DNA from: Candidatus Nomurabacteria bacterium
GTDB lineage: Bacteria > Patescibacteriota > Minisyncoccia > Phycocordibacterales > UBA2100
Direction of reading: 5' to 3'
DNA length: 50,497 nt
NCBI GenBank assembly: GCA_943356775.1
Contig: CALRFU010000006.1
Coordinates: 1-50,497, forward strand
Shown here in pieces: positions 2,449 to 26,250 of this stretch; position 1 is the first letter of the stretch, and each line of letters opens with the position of its first letter. The notes below the pieces were generated by a model, which ran no database searches, was not told the origin of the DNA, and saw only the letters and a program-made list of their open reading frames with translations. The position numbers and the translations under genes are program-made.

Positions 2449-3423
2449 TTACGGTGTACCTACCTCCGCCTGCCCCTTCAATTTGTAGTACACACGGTTC
2501 CCGAATCGTAAATCTATATATTCGAGTTCGCCGCGCTTTCCCTGCAAAACATCGGACGAAAGAACCAGCTGTAAATTCTTTATCAGCGTACCCGCGTCTG
2601 CGCCAAAAGAAGCTTTGAGCAGGAAACCTTCTTGAAGACGCACGAGAATATCCTGACCCTCGACCTCCGCACCGAGGGGCGTAAAGCCTGCCTGTCCCAA
2701 GAATTTGAGCAGTGAAAGAAGGCCAGGCAGGTGCGCCTGCACGAACCACTGGCCGACCGGACTGACTTGCAGTGAGCCTTTCGAATCCGTCGACGAAGCA
2801 ATATCCCCTTTGAAGATATACGGAGTGCTCGGGGGGGACTGCGCGGTAGTACTGGCAGCATCCACGTCCACAGGAAGATATATAAATCCTCGTTCGTCCA
2901 TGAAGTAACACGGGGCTTCATCCGTCGGACACCAACGGGCAAACGCCATCCGCTCTTCTATCATTACCTCAATCGTGGTCGAGAGAGTAGAAGGTCGGGA
3001 GATGGAGACGGATTTAACGAGTGGAAAAGATTTTATAATTGTATCTTCGAGACTTTCGCGCGGATACAGAAAAATATTCCGGCGCGAAAGAATACGGTAC
3101 GCGCCATCGTCGAGCACTGTTTCAATAGAACTCGTGATAAGTTCCTCCTTAATATTTTCTGCGCCGGAAATTGAGACCGTCGAAATGTTGAACTGAGGGA
3201 GGTACGAAACCCAACTCACACCATAGAATAAGGCACCGCAGAACACCAACCCTCCGAGCGCCCACACGGCGCGGATGCGCCGGCGCCGGGCGCGCAGCGG
3301 CATGGGACGGCGAGGAGGCTCCGGAGTACGCGGAGAAAAGAGAGGCACTTGCCCTCTAGAGAGATGCCGGGCGGAAGACCCTCCTCGCAAGTCGATGACA
3401 CCGCTACTTTTTTTGGATTGCAT
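2449..3423 (-). CDS. ftsQ: Cell division protein FtsQ/DivIB-like
   Basis: Basic N-terminal tail, one TM helix, POTRA-like segment (FNISTVSISGAENI), ER-x3-ARW, and C-terminal YIDLRFGNRVYYK. Confidence 0.8.
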   Translation of the reverse strand: MQSKKSSGVIDLRGGSSARHLSRGQVPLFSPRTPEPPRRPMPLRARRRRIRAVWALGGLVFCGALFYGVSWVSYLPQFNISTVSISGAENIKEELITSSIETVLDDGAYRILSRRNIFLYPRESLEDTIIKSFPLVKSVSISRPSTLSTTIEVMIEERMAFARWCPTDEAPCYFMDERGFIYLPVDVDAASTTAQSPPSTPYIFKGDIASSTDSKGSLQVSPVGQWFVQAHLPGLLSLLKFLGQAGFTPLGAEVEGQDILVRLQEGFLLKASFGADAGTLIKNLQLVLSSDVLQGKRGELEYIDLRFGNRVYYKLKGQAEVGTP

Positions 3424-22338: not shown

Positions 22339-23064
22339 ATGGGAATTAAGTATGCGGTTAATTCATCATTCTTTGAAAAATGGTCTCACGAGAGTGCTTA
22401 CATCTTGGGATTCTTATATGCCGACGGCAGTTTAGAAGATTCCCCTTATATACGAGGAAGATACCTCCGCGTTACGAGCACAGACAGAGACAGGATTGAT
22501 CTTATTAGAAAATCATTGTCATCAGGTCACAGCGTTGTGAATAGGAAAATCGTTGGCAACCGAAAGCAAAGTTTCTTGCTGCGCATTGGGAGTCACTCGT
22601 TATACGAGAGTCTCATAAAACACGGATTAACTCCTCGAAAATCCCTGACCATGAAATTTCCGAATGTTCCCAAAAAGTATCTGGGAGCGTTTGTGTGTGG
22701 GTACTTTGACGGAGACGGCTGCGTATATATCGAAAAAAGAAAGAACGGCACCTTTGGACGTTTAATAACAATTTTCACTAGCGGGAGTCGAGCTTTCTTT
22801 GAAAAGATGTACTCTGTTTTACTTAAGAATGGACTGACCGAGAGCAAGAGTATTTATAGACATAGCAATAAAAGAAATTATCAACTTAGATATTCCACTA
22901 CAAACAGCGTTCTTCTTTTCGGTTTGATGTATAAAGATACCTTACACAGAAGGTTACCTATGATGAGAAAATACGCTATATTTAAGCAGTACTTCGAGGT
23001 GCGGTCGACAGTTCTCACAAATAAAGGACGTCAAATCCTAAAAGAAGGCCCGATGGCGAAGTAG
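22339..23064 (+). CDS. Free-standing two-motif LAGLIDADG endonuclease-like protein
   Basis: AYILGFLYADGS and AFVCGYFDGDGCV motifs; AT-rich; stop codon lies inside tRNA-Cys. Confidence 0.88.
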   Translation: MGIKYAVNSSFFEKWSHESAYILGFLYADGSLEDSPYIRGRYLRVTSTDRDRIDLIRKSLSSGHSVVNRKIVGNRKQSFLLRIGSHSLYESLIKHGLTPRKSLTMKFPNVPKKYLGAFVCGYFDGDGCVYIEKRKNGTFGRLITIFTSGSRAFFEKMYSVLLKNGLTESKSIYRHSNKRNYQLRYSTTNSVLLFGLMYKDTLHRRLPMMRKYAIFKQYFEVRSTVLTNKGRQILKEGPMAK

Positions 23065-23174: not shown

Positions 23175-23258
23175 GCCGGGGTGGCGGAATGGTTTACGCA
23201 GAAGACTTAAAATCTTTGACCCTAAACAGGTTTGTGGGTTCGAGTCCCACCCCCGGCA
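23175..23258 (+). tRNA. tRNA-Leu(TAA)
   Basis: GCCGGGG/CCCCGGC acceptor, GAAGA-CT-TAA-AA-TCTTT, long variable arm, GGTTCGAGTCC. Confidence 0.95.
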
Positions 23259-23287
23259 CAAATGCTACAATTCGGACCTGAAGAAAT

Positions 23288-23977
23288 ATGGAACCCAACT
23301 CAGGTAAAAAATTAGAGATTGTTGTAGACGGCACACGCTGGCAGCGTCTGCCGCTCAAGACCCACGTCATCACAAAAGACGACAACATCGCCGATGTCGT
23401 AAAAAAATATGCGAGCCCGCATCTACAGAGCGGCGATATGCTTTTCATCAGTGAGCGCATCGTAGCTATCAGCCAAGGTCGCGCATACCCCATCAAGGAA
23501 ATCCATCCTTCGTGGCTCGCGAAGCTCCTCGTGAAATTCGTACACAAATCCCCCTACGGCATCGGGCTCGGGAGCCCCTGGACGATGGAGCTCGCTATAC
23601 GCGAAGTGGGTGCCTTGCGCATACTTATCGGCGCCGTAGCCGCAGTCGTCACAAAACCATTCGGATTGAAGGGCGTCTTCTATCACGTGGTCGGTAACAA
23701 CATAAACGCAATCGATGGCCCCTGCGACTATACCCTTCCCCCCTACAATGACTACGCAAAATTGGGCCCGGCCAAGCCGATGAAGGTCGCCAAAGAACTC
23801 AGTGAGGCAATTGGATGTGAAGTGGTCATCATCGACGCCAACGACCTTGGTGCTGCGGTACTCGGCAAATCAAACACAGATATCACTGACGCCTTTTGCA
23901 AAGCGGTGTTCAAAGATAATCCTCTCGGCCAGTCGTCAGAGCAGACTCCCCTTTGCATCGTGAGAAAAGTCGCGTAA
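23288..23977 (+). CDS. CofE-like (F420-0:glutamate ligase family) protein
   Basis: PLKTHVITKDDNIADVV...GDMLFISERIVAISQGR...AIDG...VIIDANDLG...NPLGQSSEQTP. Confidence 0.78.
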   Translation: MEPNSGKKLEIVVDGTRWQRLPLKTHVITKDDNIADVVKKYASPHLQSGDMLFISERIVAISQGRAYPIKEIHPSWLAKLLVKFVHKSPYGIGLGSPWTMELAIREVGALRILIGAVAAVVTKPFGLKGVFYHVVGNNINAIDGPCDYTLPPYNDYAKLGPAKPMKVAKELSEAIGCEVVIIDANDLGAAVLGKSNTDITDAFCKAVFKDNPLGQSSEQTPLCIVRKVA

Positions 23978-24027
23978 CCAAGATATTTTGATACAATCCT
24001 GATACCGTTGTTTTTGAGGACGGACGA

Positions 24028-24100
24028 CCGCCTATAGCTCAGCTGGTAGAGCAACTGCCTCTTAAGCAGTGGGTCCCTGGTTCGAATCCAGGTGGGCGGA
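24028..24100 (+). tRNA. tRNA-Lys(CTT)
   Basis: CCGCCTA/TGGGCGG acceptor, ACTGC-CT-CTT-AA-GCAGT, CCTGG-TTCGAAT-CCAGG. Confidence 0.95.
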
Positions 24101-24132
24101 CAACGAAATAGTTTGATAGGATACTCAATGTT

Positions 24133-24338
24133 GGGCAGATGGCGAAATTGGCGAATCAGCTGATTCGTGGCTTGGCCATGAAAACGCGTCCTTTTCAAAG
24201 TGCTGGGGTGGCGAAATTGGTAGACGCGCCAGGCTTAGGACCTGGTCTCGCAAGAGGTGGAGGTTCGAGTCCTCTCCCCAGCACTTTGAACGGAACCTGG
24301 TCTCGCAAGAGGTGGAGGTTCGAGTCCTCTCCTGCCCA
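24133..24338 (+). pseudogene. Split tRNA-Leu remnant (5' part 24133..24151, 3' part 24295..24338) enclosing an intact tRNA-Leu
   Basis: GGGCAGA-TG-GCGAAATTGG pairs with the distal CCTGCCC-A; the anticodon loop is missing. Confidence 0.75.
24202..24283 (+). tRNA. tRNA-Leu(TAG)
   Basis: GCTGGGG/CCCCAGC acceptor, CCAGG-CT-TAG-GA-CCTGG, long variable arm, GGTTCGAGTCC. Confidence 0.95.
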
Positions 24339-24378
24339 CAAAACAAAATAACTGGCTCGTGCCAGTTATTTTGTTTTG
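24339..24378 (+). terminator. Perfect 18-bp hairpin, terminator-like
   Basis: CAAAACAAAATAACTGGC-TCGT-GCCAGTTATTTTGTTTTG. Confidence 0.75.
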
Positions 24379-24382
24379 CTGT

Positions 24383-24479
24383 GGACTCGAACAGGAAGGG
24401 GGTCGGGGAAACACTTGTTTCCCCGTGGAGGAAGGAATGGGAAAACCGTGGGTTTCCCAGAGGTTCGAGTCCTCTCCCC
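24383..24479 (+). mobile_element. tRNA-linked structured element downstream of tRNA-Leu(TAG)
   Basis: Inverted T-loop GGACTCGAAC at 24383..24392, two internal hairpins, and a 20-bp tRNA duplicate (24460..24479 = 24260..24279). Confidence 0.65.
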
Positions 24480-24492
24480 CTGACCCAAAAAT

Positions 24493-24807
24493 TCAGTTTC
24501 CTTGAAAGAAATTATTGGGAAGCGTGATGCCGTCCGCCCGGGAAACATCTGGATTTGCGTAATCAAGACCGAAGGTATTGTCGAGGAGCTCCAGAATACC
24601 GAACACAGAAACCATGATGAGCATTCCCACGATGCCCCAGAGCATATGTTGTTTGCCCTCCTCGTTGTCTCCTCCCTCATTCAACTTCCAAAGGAATTCA
24701 ACGAGACCATAGACGAAAAGTAGAAAGCCGAGAGCAAAGACAATAAGTATCGCAGGGTTGATGATGTACGTTTCGAAACGGTACATTATGTTCGATACAG
24801 AATCCAT
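24493..24807 (-). CDS. VirB2-like pilin/membrane protein
   Basis: Two TM helices around EEGKQHMLWGIVGMLIMVSVFGI. Confidence 0.72.
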   Translation of the reverse strand: MDSVSNIMYRFETYIINPAILIVFALGFLLFVYGLVEFLWKLNEGGDNEEGKQHMLWGIVGMLIMVSVFGILELLDNTFGLDYANPDVSRADGITLPNNFFQGN

Positions 24808-24860
24808 ATTTCAGAGGCGAATCTACGTACGCCTTACGAATGAGCGCACCAGCTACTCCC

Positions 24861-25229
24861 TTATTGGTAGTAACCGCTGGTACCAGTGTTTATCTGAATG
24901 CCCTTTGGGATGACAGGGTCAGTCGAGGTGACCTTGAAGGTGCTCTGCAAGAGGCGGATGATGCCCCAGATGGATACCATCACGAAGATGGCGATGACTC
25001 CGTAGAACATAACTTGCAAACCTGCGGCTTTTTCTTCTGCCGAGTTCAGGAGGTATTTAATGAGACCCCAGAAAAAGACCACGATAGCGAGCGTGATGAA
25101 GAGCCCTATCATGGCATTCAAAAACGTATTAAAGAGTGCCAATGTGTCGAGGAGTGTAGCAGCGCTCGCCAACATTGGGAGAGCTGCTGTCGCAGTGGCG
25201 AGAACTGAGGAGCCTAGGAATTTACGCAT
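24861..25229 (-). CDS. VirB2-like pilin
   Basis: Signal peptide ending ASA; IVVFFWGLIKYL...MFYGVIAIFVMVSIWGIIRLLQSTF. Confidence 0.75.
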   Translation of the reverse strand: MRKFLGSSVLATATAALPMLASAATLLDTLALFNTFLNAMIGLFITLAIVVFFWGLIKYLLNSAEEKAAGLQVMFYGVIAIFVMVSIWGIIRLLQSTFKVTSTDPVIPKGIQINTGTSGYYQ

Positions 25230-25409
25230 ATATATTTGAGGGGCTGGTTATTTATCTATTATTCTAAAGTACCGTAATGGTATAGGTATAGTCTTATCCG
25301 CACAATGCGCGTTTGGGGATAACAGCGTACGCGGCCCGCGCCTGCTGGCGCGTGCCTGAACAGCCTCATATCGGCAGTAGCCGACATTCGGCCCCTACGG
25401 GCGCCTTCT

Positions 25410-25856
25410 TCAGGCGTGTTCATCCTTCTTCTTCCCCCCCGAATGAGCCGCAAGGTACAGGATTATCCACACAACAATGATGCCTACGATGACGGATACT
25501 GTCCATGCCGCCTCCCGCGGGTGAAACTGGAAGAATTGTACGATGGCTAAAAGCACGACGAGCACAAAGAGAATCACGACCGACCACTCCATTATCTTGA
25601 TGGCTTCGGTCCGGTACGTCGGCCACGTCCCGAGGCGACAGAGCCATAATATAAATCCGAGTCCGTACGTAAGGAGCGCTACGGTGAGCATTATCCCGAC
25701 GAAAACGTTGAAAAGCCCTATCGCCTGAGTGAATGAAGTCCCGGCACCTGCGCTTGCACCTGCGCTTGTACTGACATCTCCCGCCTGCGCAAGCGCAGGA
25801 AATCCAAGTATGAACGGCGAAGCGAGCAGGCGTAAAAAAAATGGCGACATCCGCAT
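25410..25856 (-). CDS. Pilin-like membrane protein with three TM segments
   Basis: Signal ending AQA, then LTYGLGFILW...AIKIMEWSVVILFV; start trimmed to ATG 25856, just after the upstream stop. Confidence 0.62.
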   Translation of the reverse strand: MRMSPFFLRLLASPFILGFPALAQAGDVSTSAGASAGAGTSFTQAIGLFNVFVGIMLTVALLTYGLGFILWLCRLGTWPTYRTEAIKIMEWSVVILFVLVVLLAIVQFFQFHPREAAWTVSVIVGIIVVWIILYLAAHSGGKKKDEHA

Positions 25857-25863
25857 ATAATTT

Positions 25864-26250
25864 CTATTCGCCGGTAAATTGCGGAAATCCGGGATTGTCG
25901 GATGATGTCTGCACGACACCCGAGGTCGGACTATTGATGCTCCCGCCAAAAAGCGTACTTTGCAACAAGCGCAGAATACCCCAAATGGAGACCATGACGA
26001 AGAGTATGATGATGCCCCAGAAGAAGTACGCCCTCACTTTTTCTCCCCCATCGTCACTAAAATTCAATATGTTTGTCGAGATGCCGTAGAAGTAGACAAC
26101 GATGCCCGCCACGATGAGTACTGCCGTCGTGGCATCAAAAATGTCCACGATGTCAATAGCAAGCTCTTGAAAGTTGCGCGCTGCTTCGGCGGATGCGACG
26201 ACAGGTAACATCAGAGTAATCACGCCAGTCAATACCGTTAGCTTGTACAT
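25864..26250 (-). CDS. VirB2-like pilin
   Basis: Signal ending ASA; IVVYFYGI...FFWGIIILFVMVSIWGILRLLQSTLF, a clear paralogue of 24861..25229. Confidence 0.75.
   Translation of the reverse strand: MYKLTVLTGVITLMLPVVASAEAARNFQELAIDIVDIFDATTAVLIVAGIVVYFYGISTNILNFSDDGGEKVRAYFFWGIIILFVMVSIWGILRLLQSTLFGGSINSPTSGVVQTSSDNPGFPQFTGE

Follow-up and report, generated by a model that had tools for sequence, protein, structure and literature searches.

Can a complete tRNA gene stand inside another gene for the same tRNA, and if so, which of the two serves the cell and what becomes of the other? The question was raised by a locus at positions 24133-24338 of a stretch of 50,497 nt from Candidatus Nomurabacteria bacterium (assembly GCA_943356775.1, contig CALRFU010000006.1, positions 1-50,497, forward strand), hereafter called the window. 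The window is part of a genome, and copy counts given below for a tRNA or a palindrome hold for these ~50 kb only. At the locus, a tRNA-Leu gene is nested between the two halves of a second tRNA-Leu gene, which we call the shell; the nesting was confirmed, and every sequence feature that an original prediction, made from the letters alone, had listed for it was found in its place. With slightly better than even confidence, we read the locus as the result of an invasion, in which a stalked tRNA cassette entered the resident gene that encoded the same tRNA and assumed its role while the shell decays, and which has recurred in Patescibacteria of the Paceibacteria/Kaiserbacteria group. The window itself comes from a member of Patescibacteria (the candidate phyla radiation, CPR), and the genome contigs nearest to it belong to Kaiserbacteria/Paceibacteria metagenome-assembled genomes (MAGs).

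Structure of the locus

As Table 1 shows, the inner gene is an intact tRNA-Leu(UAG). ARAGORN called a tRNA-Leu(TAG) at 24202-24283/4, and Rfam placed it in RF00005 with 59.1 bits against a gathering score of 29. The gene is a canonical bacterial class II tRNA with U8, G18G19, the T-loop TTCGA, a 7-nt anticodon loop with U33, and A73. Positions 8-65 were identical to those of the plain tRNA-Leu(TAG) genes of three related loci, L001, L003 and L005 (loci are designated by L and a number). With the inner gene called at 24202-24283 and the shell legible on both sides of it, the idea of an intact tRNA-Leu(TAG) within the halves of a second tRNA-Leu held.

The shell has tRNA-Leu positions 1-26, its D loop enlarged, and positions 38-73. 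Between them, the stalk and the inner tRNA have taken the place of positions 27-37, so that the 5' strand of the anticodon stem and, as predicted, the anticodon loop are missing. Its first 19 nt are the same as positions 1-19 of the plain gene of L001, L003 and L005, save for G7A. The original prediction had let the 5' part end at 24151 and had placed a 16-bp palindrome at the left breakpoint. Both sequences are there, but the shell continues past 24151 with the D-stem 3' strand and G26 after an insertion of 32 nt, and because these follow at 24185-24188, the palindrome lies inside the shell D loop and not at a breakpoint. The sequence of the D-loop insertion was 100% identical in the window, L004 and L103. 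The outer acceptor halves had been described as complementary, and GGGCAG/CTGCCC do pair, but the seventh pair is A.C (A7 at 24139 opposite C66 at 24331), so that six of the seven pairs are formed. The outer shell departs from a canonical tRNA in the missing positions 27-37, the 32 extra nt of the D loop and the A.C at 7-66, and neither ARAGORN nor Rfam reported a tRNA model for 24133-24338.

The inner acceptor stem is extended by the perfect 8 bp that had been predicted; together, the 7-bp acceptor stem and the 8 flanking bp make a perfect 15-bp inverted repeat (24194-24208 / 24276-24290). The stalk pairing was also displayed by the minimum free energy (MFE) fold, and the unit of 206 nt as a whole folded into a nested double structure with an MFE of -90.8 kcal/mol and z = -4.0 against shuffles. 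An exact direct repeat of 38 nt, likewise predicted, was found at 24240-24277 and 24295-24332: the first 38 nt of the shell 3' part copy the inner tRNA from its position 38 to 67. Among the tRNA genes of the window, only the inner Leu(TAG) gene has a shell. The nest begins 31 nt downstream of tRNA-Lys(CTT), which is probably in one transcription unit with it, and the order Cys - Leu(TAA) - ... - Lys(CTT) - Leu(TAG) is that of a conserved cluster; Lys(CTT) also precedes Leu(TAG) in L001, L004, L005, L103, L113, L090, L091, L086 and L108.

Table 1. Features of the nested tRNA-Leu locus and of its surroundings, in window coordinates
Feature	Position	Strand	Description
Shell, 5' part GGGCAGATGGCGAAATTGG	24133-24151	+	Acceptor GGGCAGA, U8 G9, D-stem GCG, D-loop AAATTGG; direct reading
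D-loop insertion of the shell	24152-24184	+	32 nt; two hairpins and TGAAAA
Palindromic hairpin CGAATCAGCTGATTCG	24152-24167	+	16-bp palindrome; single copy in the window
Second D-loop hairpin TGGCTTGGCCA	24168-24178	+	Inside the D-loop insertion of the shell
Shell, D-stem 3' strand CGC and G26 (CGCG)	24185-24188	+	Read against the plain tRNA of L001 (...TAGACGCG CCAGG...)
Stalk, 5' strand	24189-24201	+	TCCTT, weak outer helix; TTCAAAGT pairs with the trailer; U(-1) pairs with A73
Inner intact tRNA-Leu(UAG)	24202-24283	+	Acceptor GCTGGGG/CCCCAGC, long variable arm, A73, no encoded CCA
Stalk, 3' strand CTTTGAA and weak outer helix CGGA	24284-24294	+	Homologous junctions: GAACGGAAC in L004, GAACAGGAC in L103
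Shell, 3' part	24295-24338	+	ACCTGG, variable arm TCTCGCAAGAGGTG, T arm GGAGG-TTCGAGT-CCTCT, acceptor CCTGCCC, A73; ends ...CCTGCCCA
tRNA-Lys(CTT)	24028-24101	+	ARAGORN; Rfam, 70 bits; upstream neighbour of the nest
LAGLIDADG endonuclease open reading frame (ORF)	22339-23064	+	PF14528, E=3.4e-11; ends inside the start of tRNA-Cys (23047); 1.1 kb upstream of the nest
Perfect inverted repeat, 18 bp	24339-24378	.	Flanked by an A run and, opposite, a T run; lies between the tRNA unit and convergent pilin-like genes; probable bidirectional terminator
Third element, hairpin-rich putative tRNA-like remnant	24380-24487	+	T-loop complement GGACTCGAAC at the start; inner T arm copied exactly over 20 nt, followed by CTGACCCA, at the end

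Presence of the structure in independent sequence data

The sequence of the nest region was present in 20 public runs from 7 studies. In contigs assembled at k=31 from four lake metagenome runs, a left contig reached the first repeat copy after the shell 5' part, the hairpins and the inner 5' part, and in two of the four the depth of the 38-mer repeat node was about double that of the flanks. A junction piece of 77 nt (24248-24324), which left the first copy via CCAGCACTTTGAACGGA and re-entered the second, had the depth of the flanks in all four runs, which come from two studies; a separate right contig completed the k=31 graph expected for a true tandem copy. One contig of 2,881 nt from a riverine metagenome of another study, which represents a diverged strain, covered 23903-24600 whole.

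The original prediction had named as its refutation a collapsed or chimeric assembly of two strain alleles, to which a local duplication/deletion accident in one genome may be added. The 38-nt exact repeat exceeds the k-mer of many assemblers, and Logan contigs do break there. However, the junction piece at flank depth, the double-depth repeat node and the single contig spanning the whole structure, together with the presence in 20 runs, ruled out a chimera, and the same architecture was met with other sequences in ~25 independent contigs, which argues against a local accident as well. We consider an artefact or accident of this kind barely conceivable.

Between the window and the riverine strain (run X9), 1 difference was found between 24098 and 24440 (24303 T>C), and there were many upstream of 24024 and in the right-hand pilin gene. 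The near-invariant block of ~340 nt begins 35 nt before the shell and extends over the nest and the terminator hairpin into the third element, half of which it covers. It could be either a recent recombination tract or a sign of constraint.

Distribution of nested tRNA genes

A search for relatives retrieved 80 genome loci with the adjacent F420-ligase-like ORF (23288-23977). Metagenome contigs were scanned with a pattern consisting of the inner acceptor stem and five stalk pairs (AAAGTGCTGGGG N58-78 CCCCAGCACTTT), which returned 37 contigs, 30 of them unique; with the window and L004, 32 unique loci were examined. A shell 5' half, with acceptor strand, U8 and D arm, lay directly upstream of the inner tRNA in ~25 of the 32. 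The scan contigs were at the orthologous locus, with Cys, Leu(TAA), Lys(CTT), Leu(TAG) and convergent pilin genes in this order, and the identity of their pilins to that of the window went down to 30-50%. The nest is not a one-off event; what was found is a recurrent, laterally moving architecture, of which the window copy is a somewhat degenerate member.

Twelve shells, including that of the window, had both halves, an intact T arm and a discriminator. They carried eight acceptor sequences, namely GGGCAGA/GGGCAGG (which differ only at position 7), GGGCGGG, GGGCGAG, GCCGAGG, GCCCGGG, GCCCTCG, GCTCCCG and GCCTTCG. In these 12 shells, 97% of the cells of the acceptor and T stems were paired and 10 of 12 pairs had changed on both sides, figures that describe a set chosen for pairing and are no proof of selection. 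The Leu cassettes sit after shell position 26. The shell anticodon arm had different fates: it was kept in mutated form in L089 (TAG), L093 (TAC) and L100 (loop UGUAGAG), half deleted in the window and L103, wholly deleted in L104, L106 and L114, and interrupted by a three-hairpin module in L082, L084, L101 and L116. This module of ~95 nt lies between the cassette and the variable arm, at the position of the anticodon loop, and begins with the hairpin GGAAUGAAAAGCAA...UUGCUUUUCAUCC; 13 of its 36 pairs were compensatory across the four loci. The shell 3' half was lost in L004, L085, L107, L113 and L096, and only CTTGCCCA remained of it in L108.

The stalk beyond AAAGT/ACTTT had 26 distinct sequences in the 32 loci and kept its pairing, with a mean length of 6.3 bp vs 4.2 bp for 5' and 3' flanks recombined across loci. 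At the stalk junction, other loci had a symmetric internal loop of ~3x3 nt, whereas the window has a continuous helix of 15 bp. Rfam found nothing but tRNA for the shell, the stalk, the three-hairpin module and the third element. Neither the stalked tRNA nor the D-loop hairpins had a match when viral contigs were scanned (0 for each), and a phage origin was rejected on this ground.

Nests can be deeper. On the minus strand of L093 (5390-5767), tRNA-Leu genes are nested at three levels, GCTGGGG{GCCCTCG{GCTGGGG}}. The outer shell, of the GCTGGGG type, has hairpins in the D loop and in the T loop, the latter with a hairpin insertion of 57 nt; the middle tRNA-Leu, of the GCCCTCG type, stands on a GTCCCGCC/GGCGGGAT stalk, and the innermost tRNA, again of the GCTGGGG type and intact, on a stalk of 14 bp. 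The unconstrained MFE fold of these 378 nt was a triple cloverleaf. Extra shell 5' halves were found upstream in L088, L083, L081 and L100.

A search for shells around all 187 tRNAs of the collected loci revealed three nests other than Leu. In L083 (4289-4473), a tRNA-Val(TAC) forms a clean double cloverleaf, with the cassette in the anticodon loop of the shell and a stalk of 13 bp. A second tRNA-Val(TAC) nest, in L104 (~2505-2735, minus strand), has a stalk of only ~5 bp, which is offset. The third is a tRNA-Lys(CTT) in L115 (8317-8635), whose stalk measures 12 bp and whose shell anticodon has mutated to CCT; one more 5' half lies upstream of it. The stalk ends TTCACCCCGTTA...TAACGGGGCAAG are common to the cassettes of L083 (Val) and L093 (Leu).

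Exchange between lineages and between the two genes

The original prediction expected relatives with a single GGGCAG...CTGCCC tRNA-Leu, and such genes exist: after tRNA-Lys(CTT), L001, L003 and L005 carry one plain tRNA-Leu(TAG), GGGCAGG-TGGCGAAATTGGTAGACGCGCCAGGCTTAGGACCTGGTCTCGCAAGAGGTGGAGGTTCGAGTCCTCT-CCTGCCC-A, that is, an acceptor stem of the shell type around a body identical to that of the window inner tRNA. L002 and L006 have a plain tRNA-Leu of the GGGCGGG type. L004 is occupied: its shell 5' part, hairpins and stalk are as in the window (66 of 69 positions identical), the body of its inner tRNA differs, and the shell 3' half is gone. In L103 and L101, the shell 3' part is GTCCCGCAAGGGTTGGGAGTTCGAGTCTCCCTCTGCCC, which is unlike that of the window and was not copied from the inner tRNA. 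As in homing, empty alleles (L001, L003, L005) thus stand beside occupied ones (the window, L004, L103), with lateral spread beyond the genome background. In L001 (4937-5330) and L005 (4912-5560), extra sequence lies between the 3' end of the plain tRNA-Leu(TAG) and the pilin genes, and in L001 it starts with an ATG-led ORF; this suggests that the 3' end of tRNA-Leu(TAG) may be a further insertion hot spot.

After comparison of the window with L103, the neighbours of the nest showed 78% (tRNA-Cys), 69% (tRNA-Leu(TAA)), 84% (tRNA-Lys) and, for the pilin, 48% amino-acid identity. In the nest, 67 of 69 positions of the shell 5' part, hairpins and stalk and 79 of 82 positions of the inner tRNA were identical by manual count (96-97%), and the similarity started exactly at shell G1. 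Since the nested allele is 96-97% identical and the neighbouring tRNAs 69-84%, the allele moves laterally. The window and L004 were not sisters in the adjacent-gene tree. The inner tRNA of L004 was 100% identical to that of L085 and the shells of the two differed; the same inner tRNA in different shells means that the alleles are mosaic. Elsewhere in the cluster, the window was identical to L004 at 100% in tRNA-Lys (24028-24101) and at 75% in tRNA-Leu(TAA) (23175-23259), and to L001 at 97% and 100%, respectively, which suggests frequent recombination inside the tRNA cluster.

The inner tRNA and its shell evolve in concert. In the window, the two have the same variable and T arms; in L084 their D arms match as well, and in L114 they agree in the variable arm, with 1 nt of difference between the T arms. 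From one lineage to another, the sequences of these arms differ. The 38-nt repeat is best explained by gene conversion from the inner gene to the shell and is not itself the integration scar. L101 and L103 have the GGGCAGA shell 5' strand of the window and yet keep T66; C66 of the window, and with it the A7.C66 mismatch, would best be accounted for by a conversion tract that ran from position 38 to 67.

Hairpins, neighbouring genes and the third element

Many of the 'empty' hairpins in shell D loops end in YCCCG...CGGGR and CARG, like the loaded stalks (GTCCCG...CGGGACAAG). A palindrome of 20 bp, CCTGCCTGCCGGCAGGCAGG, recurs in L116 (9350 and 9599), L095 (1816), L090 (4866), L097 (1), L104 (2693), L088 (6747) and L031 (5987), for the most part within the D loop or the T arm of a tRNA shell, and has the appearance of a small mobile palindromic element that favours tRNA-like sequence. 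The 16-bp palindrome of the window D loop, when sought as a repeat within the window, was found in one copy only in 50 kb.

The ORFs near the nest include several small proteins like type IV secretion system (T4SS) pilins and a short IF-2. At 24493-25949 (minus strand), small T4SS-pilin-like ORFs of 104, 122 and 179 aa are convergent with the tRNA unit, and the adjacency of tRNA-Leu(TAG) and pilin genes is conserved across the clade. A scan of 23900-24600 for consensus promoters and terminators gave no match and did not list the 24339-24378 hairpin, which was recognized by inspection as a probable bidirectional terminator.

Homologues of the LAGLIDADG ORF were found in L103 (161-838, 56% identical), at the same place, and in L002 (5635-6177, 28%), ~50 nt upstream of the plain tRNA-Leu(TAG). 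These ORFs look like free-standing homing endonuclease genes in tRNA clusters. There was no correlation with nesting: L004 is nested and had no match in 8.7 kb, L002 is plain and has one, and L001 had none.

The third element forms a direct repeat family and several inverted repeats in the repeat analysis. It was rejected as a tRNA; the 94-nt 'tRNA-His' of ARAGORN and the tRNA-Sec of Rfam (19.8 bits vs 47) are not credible, and its fold was no better than shuffles (z = -1.2). Homologous elements with a GGGGTCGSGG hairpin lie beside the Leu(TAG) locus in L003 and L114, and similarly built elements in L084 and L090 end with a 17-nt copy of the shell 3' end. The core of the third element (~24409-24466) was ~90% identical to several other lake and river metagenome contigs.

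Discussion

The original prediction held that a tRNA cassette had entered a resident tRNA-Leu and replaced its function. This core idea is supported by the comparisons above; the cassette lies after position 26 and not after position 19. The anatomy of the nest, its recurrence, its lateral movement and the concerted evolution of its two genes are established by these data. How the cassette came there, how the RNA is processed and whether the shell lacks a function we infer as follows. A hairpin cassette with a complete tRNA gene in its loop would insert into the resident gene for the same tRNA, in Leu genes after position 26; the insertion would destroy the resident gene, and the cargo tRNA would take over. 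The shell, no longer needed for decoding, would then gain 'empty' hairpins (here the 32-nt D-loop insertion) and lose parts (here positions 27-37), and in other lineages would be half deleted or invaded again. The inner gene would homogenize the shell by gene conversion, leaving here the 38-nt repeat, the nested allele would pass between lineages by recombination, and in some lineages the inner tRNA itself would be invaded again. Signs of decay in the shells are the losses of 3' halves, the mutated anticodons (TAC in L093, UGUAGAG in L100, CCT in L115) and the strain variant at 24303, which breaks a pair of the variable arm.

The unit would be co-transcribed with tRNA-Lys and end at the 24339-24378 hairpin. 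RNase P would cut at 24201/24202, 3' processing and CCA addition would follow after A73 (24283), a cut of the stalk by an RNase III-type enzyme would perhaps precede the release of the inner tRNA, and the shell halves would be by-products. The RNA data are assembled contigs of three metatranscriptomes, from which no processing sites can be read. Two contigs matched 24189-24269 and 24240-24324 exactly, at a depth of ~2, which weakly suggests that the junctions are present in RNA. The outer halves and the inner tRNA had also been proposed to form one precursor from which the inner tRNA is excised. Co-transcription is plausible, with weak support from these low-depth contigs, but the joined halves would give no decoding tRNA because the anticodon loop is absent.

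A bolder form of this account, which we put forward tentatively and hold to be less than likely, is that of a protein-less, self-compensating mobile hairpin cassette with a complete tRNA in its loop, which would enter a loop-coding part of the resident gene for the same tRNA, kill and replace that gene, make Russian-doll genes by repeated invasion and spread between lineages. Like a mobile element with terminal inverted repeats (TIRs), the cassette has a perfect 15-bp inverted repeat, of which 7 bp are the acceptor stem itself. Nucleases acting in trans, among them perhaps the LAGLIDADG enzymes of the same tRNA clusters, might drive its spread. A still stronger version, suggested here as a possibility, gives the shells their own function, for which these anticodon-less tRNA-like RNAs would be retained.

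Several points weigh against invasion followed by replacement and decay. The cassette encodes no protein, and no transposase, integrase or endonuclease was found inside it. No consistent target-site duplication emerged when cassette junctions were compared, and the 50-kb window holds one nest copy; the D-stem 3' strand does stand on both sides of some Leu cassettes, but no consistent duplication can be defined because comparison with the Val cassette of L083 assigns part of that D-stem sequence to the cassette. That the inner gene is the sole tRNA-Leu(UAG) is a statement about the window of ~50 kb. The support from RNA consists of two low-depth contigs and could be due to DNA carry-over. The 37 loci were found by a fixed inner acceptor and five stalk pairs, and the 12 'clean' shells were chosen for pairing, so that frequencies and pairing statistics are biased by ascertainment. 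Moreover, the plain genes of L001, L003 and L005 could be nested alleles that collapsed via repeats of 12 and 38 nt. Finally, some features suggest that the shells are under constraint and not in decay: conservation sets in sharply at shell G1 and stops as sharply at N73, the D-loop hairpins show 100% conservation between distant genomes, 11 of the 12 shells retain A73, and the three-hairpin module of L082, L084, L101 and L116 has the 13 of 36 compensatory pairs described above.

These last observations are the ground of the most serious rival, in which the shell is a selected functional RNA, an anticodon-less, two-piece tRNA-Leu-like molecule whose halves are joined by the acceptor stem and the stalk. 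Such a molecule might serve as a scaffold for processing or stability of the inner tRNA, or as a leucine carrier for non-ribosomal use that leucyl-tRNA synthetase (LeuRS) can charge; A73, kept in nearly all shells, is the main identity element for bacterial LeuRS. Conservation runs exactly from shell G1 to N73 between flanks that cannot be aligned, the acceptor and T stems of the 12 shells are paired almost throughout with 10 of 12 pairs compensatory, compensatory changes preserve the pairing of the D-loop hairpins and of the three-hairpin module, and the inner and outer acceptors differ in sequence, as they would have to if a nested RNA is to fold correctly. Against this stand the absence of the 3' half in L004, which has the same allele family, and in at least five other lineages, the A.C mismatch and the unpartnered ACCTGG of the window shell, the pair disrupted by 24303 T>C, the mutated shell anticodons, the degenerate T arms of L089, L092, L095 and L115, and the repeated palindrome of L116, which is inserted in its D loop and again in its T arm, as is typical of dead DNA. 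The shells behind the pairing statistics were picked for pairing, and complementary halves are expected anyway if the shell was recently a working gene. On balance, a functional shell seems unlikely to us. The direction of change could also be the reverse, with the nested form ancestral and the plain tRNA-Leu(UAG) genes arising by recombination or gene conversion between shell and inner gene. The plain gene of L001, L003 and L005 is exactly the shell acceptor stem plus the window inner body, as recombination across the 12-nt (TGGCGAAATTGG) and 38-nt repeats should produce, and the orthologous locus holds nested alleles in genomes that are phylogenetically wide apart. However, this route requires two deletions, with an intermediate after one step that has mismatched acceptor strands; the allele of the window, L004 and L103 is far above the genome background in similarity, which points to recent arrival and not to old residence; and multi-level nests mean that nesting recurs. 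We regard an ancestral nest as improbable, and note that insertion and collapse are not mutually exclusive, since collapse may also occur.

A direct repeat from the anticodon loop to the 3' end of a tRNA is the classic geometry of the attachment (att) sites of tRNA-integrating elements, and the 3' fragment of the window, from anticodon-loop position 38 to the 3' end, could on that model be a displaced right-hand site (attR) of an island since largely deleted. The geometry of the repeat, exact over 38 nt, fits, and the window, L003, L084 and L090 have further partial tRNA 3' ends downstream. But the intact tRNA and the repeat are only 11 nt apart, none of the neighbouring ORFs encodes an integrase, integration leaves no 5' fragment upstream of an intact tRNA, the 3' part of L103 and L101 was not copied from the inner tRNA, and the geometry is nested and not tandem in >20 loci. 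Among the loci examined, no island with an integrase was seen between the intact tRNA and the 3' fragment. An att duplication of the integrase type was rejected on these grounds, and an island remnant is very improbable. A transfer-messenger RNA (tmRNA) was rejected as well; ARAGORN called none, the shell is of the Leu type, and G3.U70 is lacking.

Invasion by a stalked cassette, to which we lean, has no exact counterpart among known systems. A full-text literature search turned up no report of one tRNA gene nested in another, nor of tRNA insertions in Patescibacteria. In a review of disrupted tRNA genes, Bacteria appear only with self-splicing introns, nesting is unmentioned, and introns, split genes and permuted genes are known from Archaea and algae (PMC4390854). 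The nest shares features with each of its nearest systems and has the defining features of none; what is new is a whole replacement gene within the insertion.

Integrative elements that target tRNA genes reportedly carry a replacement for the 3' part of the tRNA, as Williams is said to have described in Nucleic Acids Res in 2002. Like the nest, they are mobile insertions in a tRNA gene that bring restoring sequence, have partial tRNA copies as direct repeats and take the anticodon loop and the T loop as landmarks. Unlike them, the nest supplies a whole tRNA on a stalk, with the shell on both sides, in nested and not tandem order and with several levels possible, and it has no integrase and no cargo beyond the tRNA. 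Nested transposable elements, miniature inverted-repeat transposable elements (MITEs) and repetitive extragenic palindromic sequences with the bacterial interspersed mosaic elements that they form (REP/BIME) are another system for comparison, and the inverted-repeat ends, the 'empty' hairpins with the same end motif, the recurring CCTGCCTGCCGGCAGGCAGG and the Russian-doll nests resemble them. In contrast to MITEs, the cargo of the nest is the targeted gene, there is no clear target-site duplication, one copy is present in 50 kb, and the stalk sequences vary and yet pair, which is unexpected for ends recognized by a transposase. Lastly, in rRNA operons with their processing stalks, and in fragmented rRNAs with intervening sequences, a stable RNA is excised from a leader/trailer duplex without re-ligation. 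The nest is similar in that a stable RNA is flanked by a long leader/trailer duplex; we know of no description of such stalk processing for a tRNA nested in a tRNA.

Group I introns in the anticodon loops of bacterial tRNAs are likewise inserted in a loop, spread laterally into empty alleles and have their harm neutralized (PMC3984707; PMC4390854). The nest, however, has no group I core or internal endonuclease, its exons cannot be rejoined to a decoding tRNA because their anticodon is missing or mutated, and the harm is offset by a new gene copy. A group I or group II intron was rejected: no Rfam intron family was found at E<=10 in the window region or in 20 related loci, and the exons have no anticodon. 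The multiple-intron, split, tri-split and permuted tRNAs of Archaea and algae resemble the nest in their fragmented coding sequence, flank helix and loop insertions, including some in the D loop (PMC4390854; PMC3978253; PMC3218864). They depend on a bulge-helix-bulge (BHB), a splicing endonuclease and a ligase to give one tRNA, whereas the nest is bacterial and its intervening sequence is itself a functional tRNA; BHB introns and split or permuted tRNAs were rejected, as no bulge-helix-bulge motif (two 3-nt bulges, 4 bp apart) was found and a continuous helix or symmetric internal loop is present instead. Free-standing homing endonucleases in tRNA clusters, such as phage T4 SegB, share with the window an endonuclease gene among tRNA genes and mosaic, exchanged alleles (PMC2330249; PMC13096335). 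There is, in contrast, no sign that the LAGLIDADG protein cuts the tRNA-Leu gene, and its presence does not track nesting.

Conclusions

With tRNA genes nested in the shells of their own homologues, the disrupted tRNA genes would gain a bacterial class that works by replacement and not by splicing. The recurrence of the architecture, at up to three levels, in three isoacceptors and with lateral transfer, is evidence for such a class. It would mean that an essential single-copy gene can tolerate invasion. For the tRNA processing of Patescibacteria, it would provide a substrate in which a leader/trailer duplex of 15-20 bp continues the acceptor stem. For annotators, tRNA halves or odd 'tRNA' calls beside real tRNAs in these genomes would be shells and not assembly errors. 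If the shells proved to be functional, they would be a new kind of tRNA-derived RNA.

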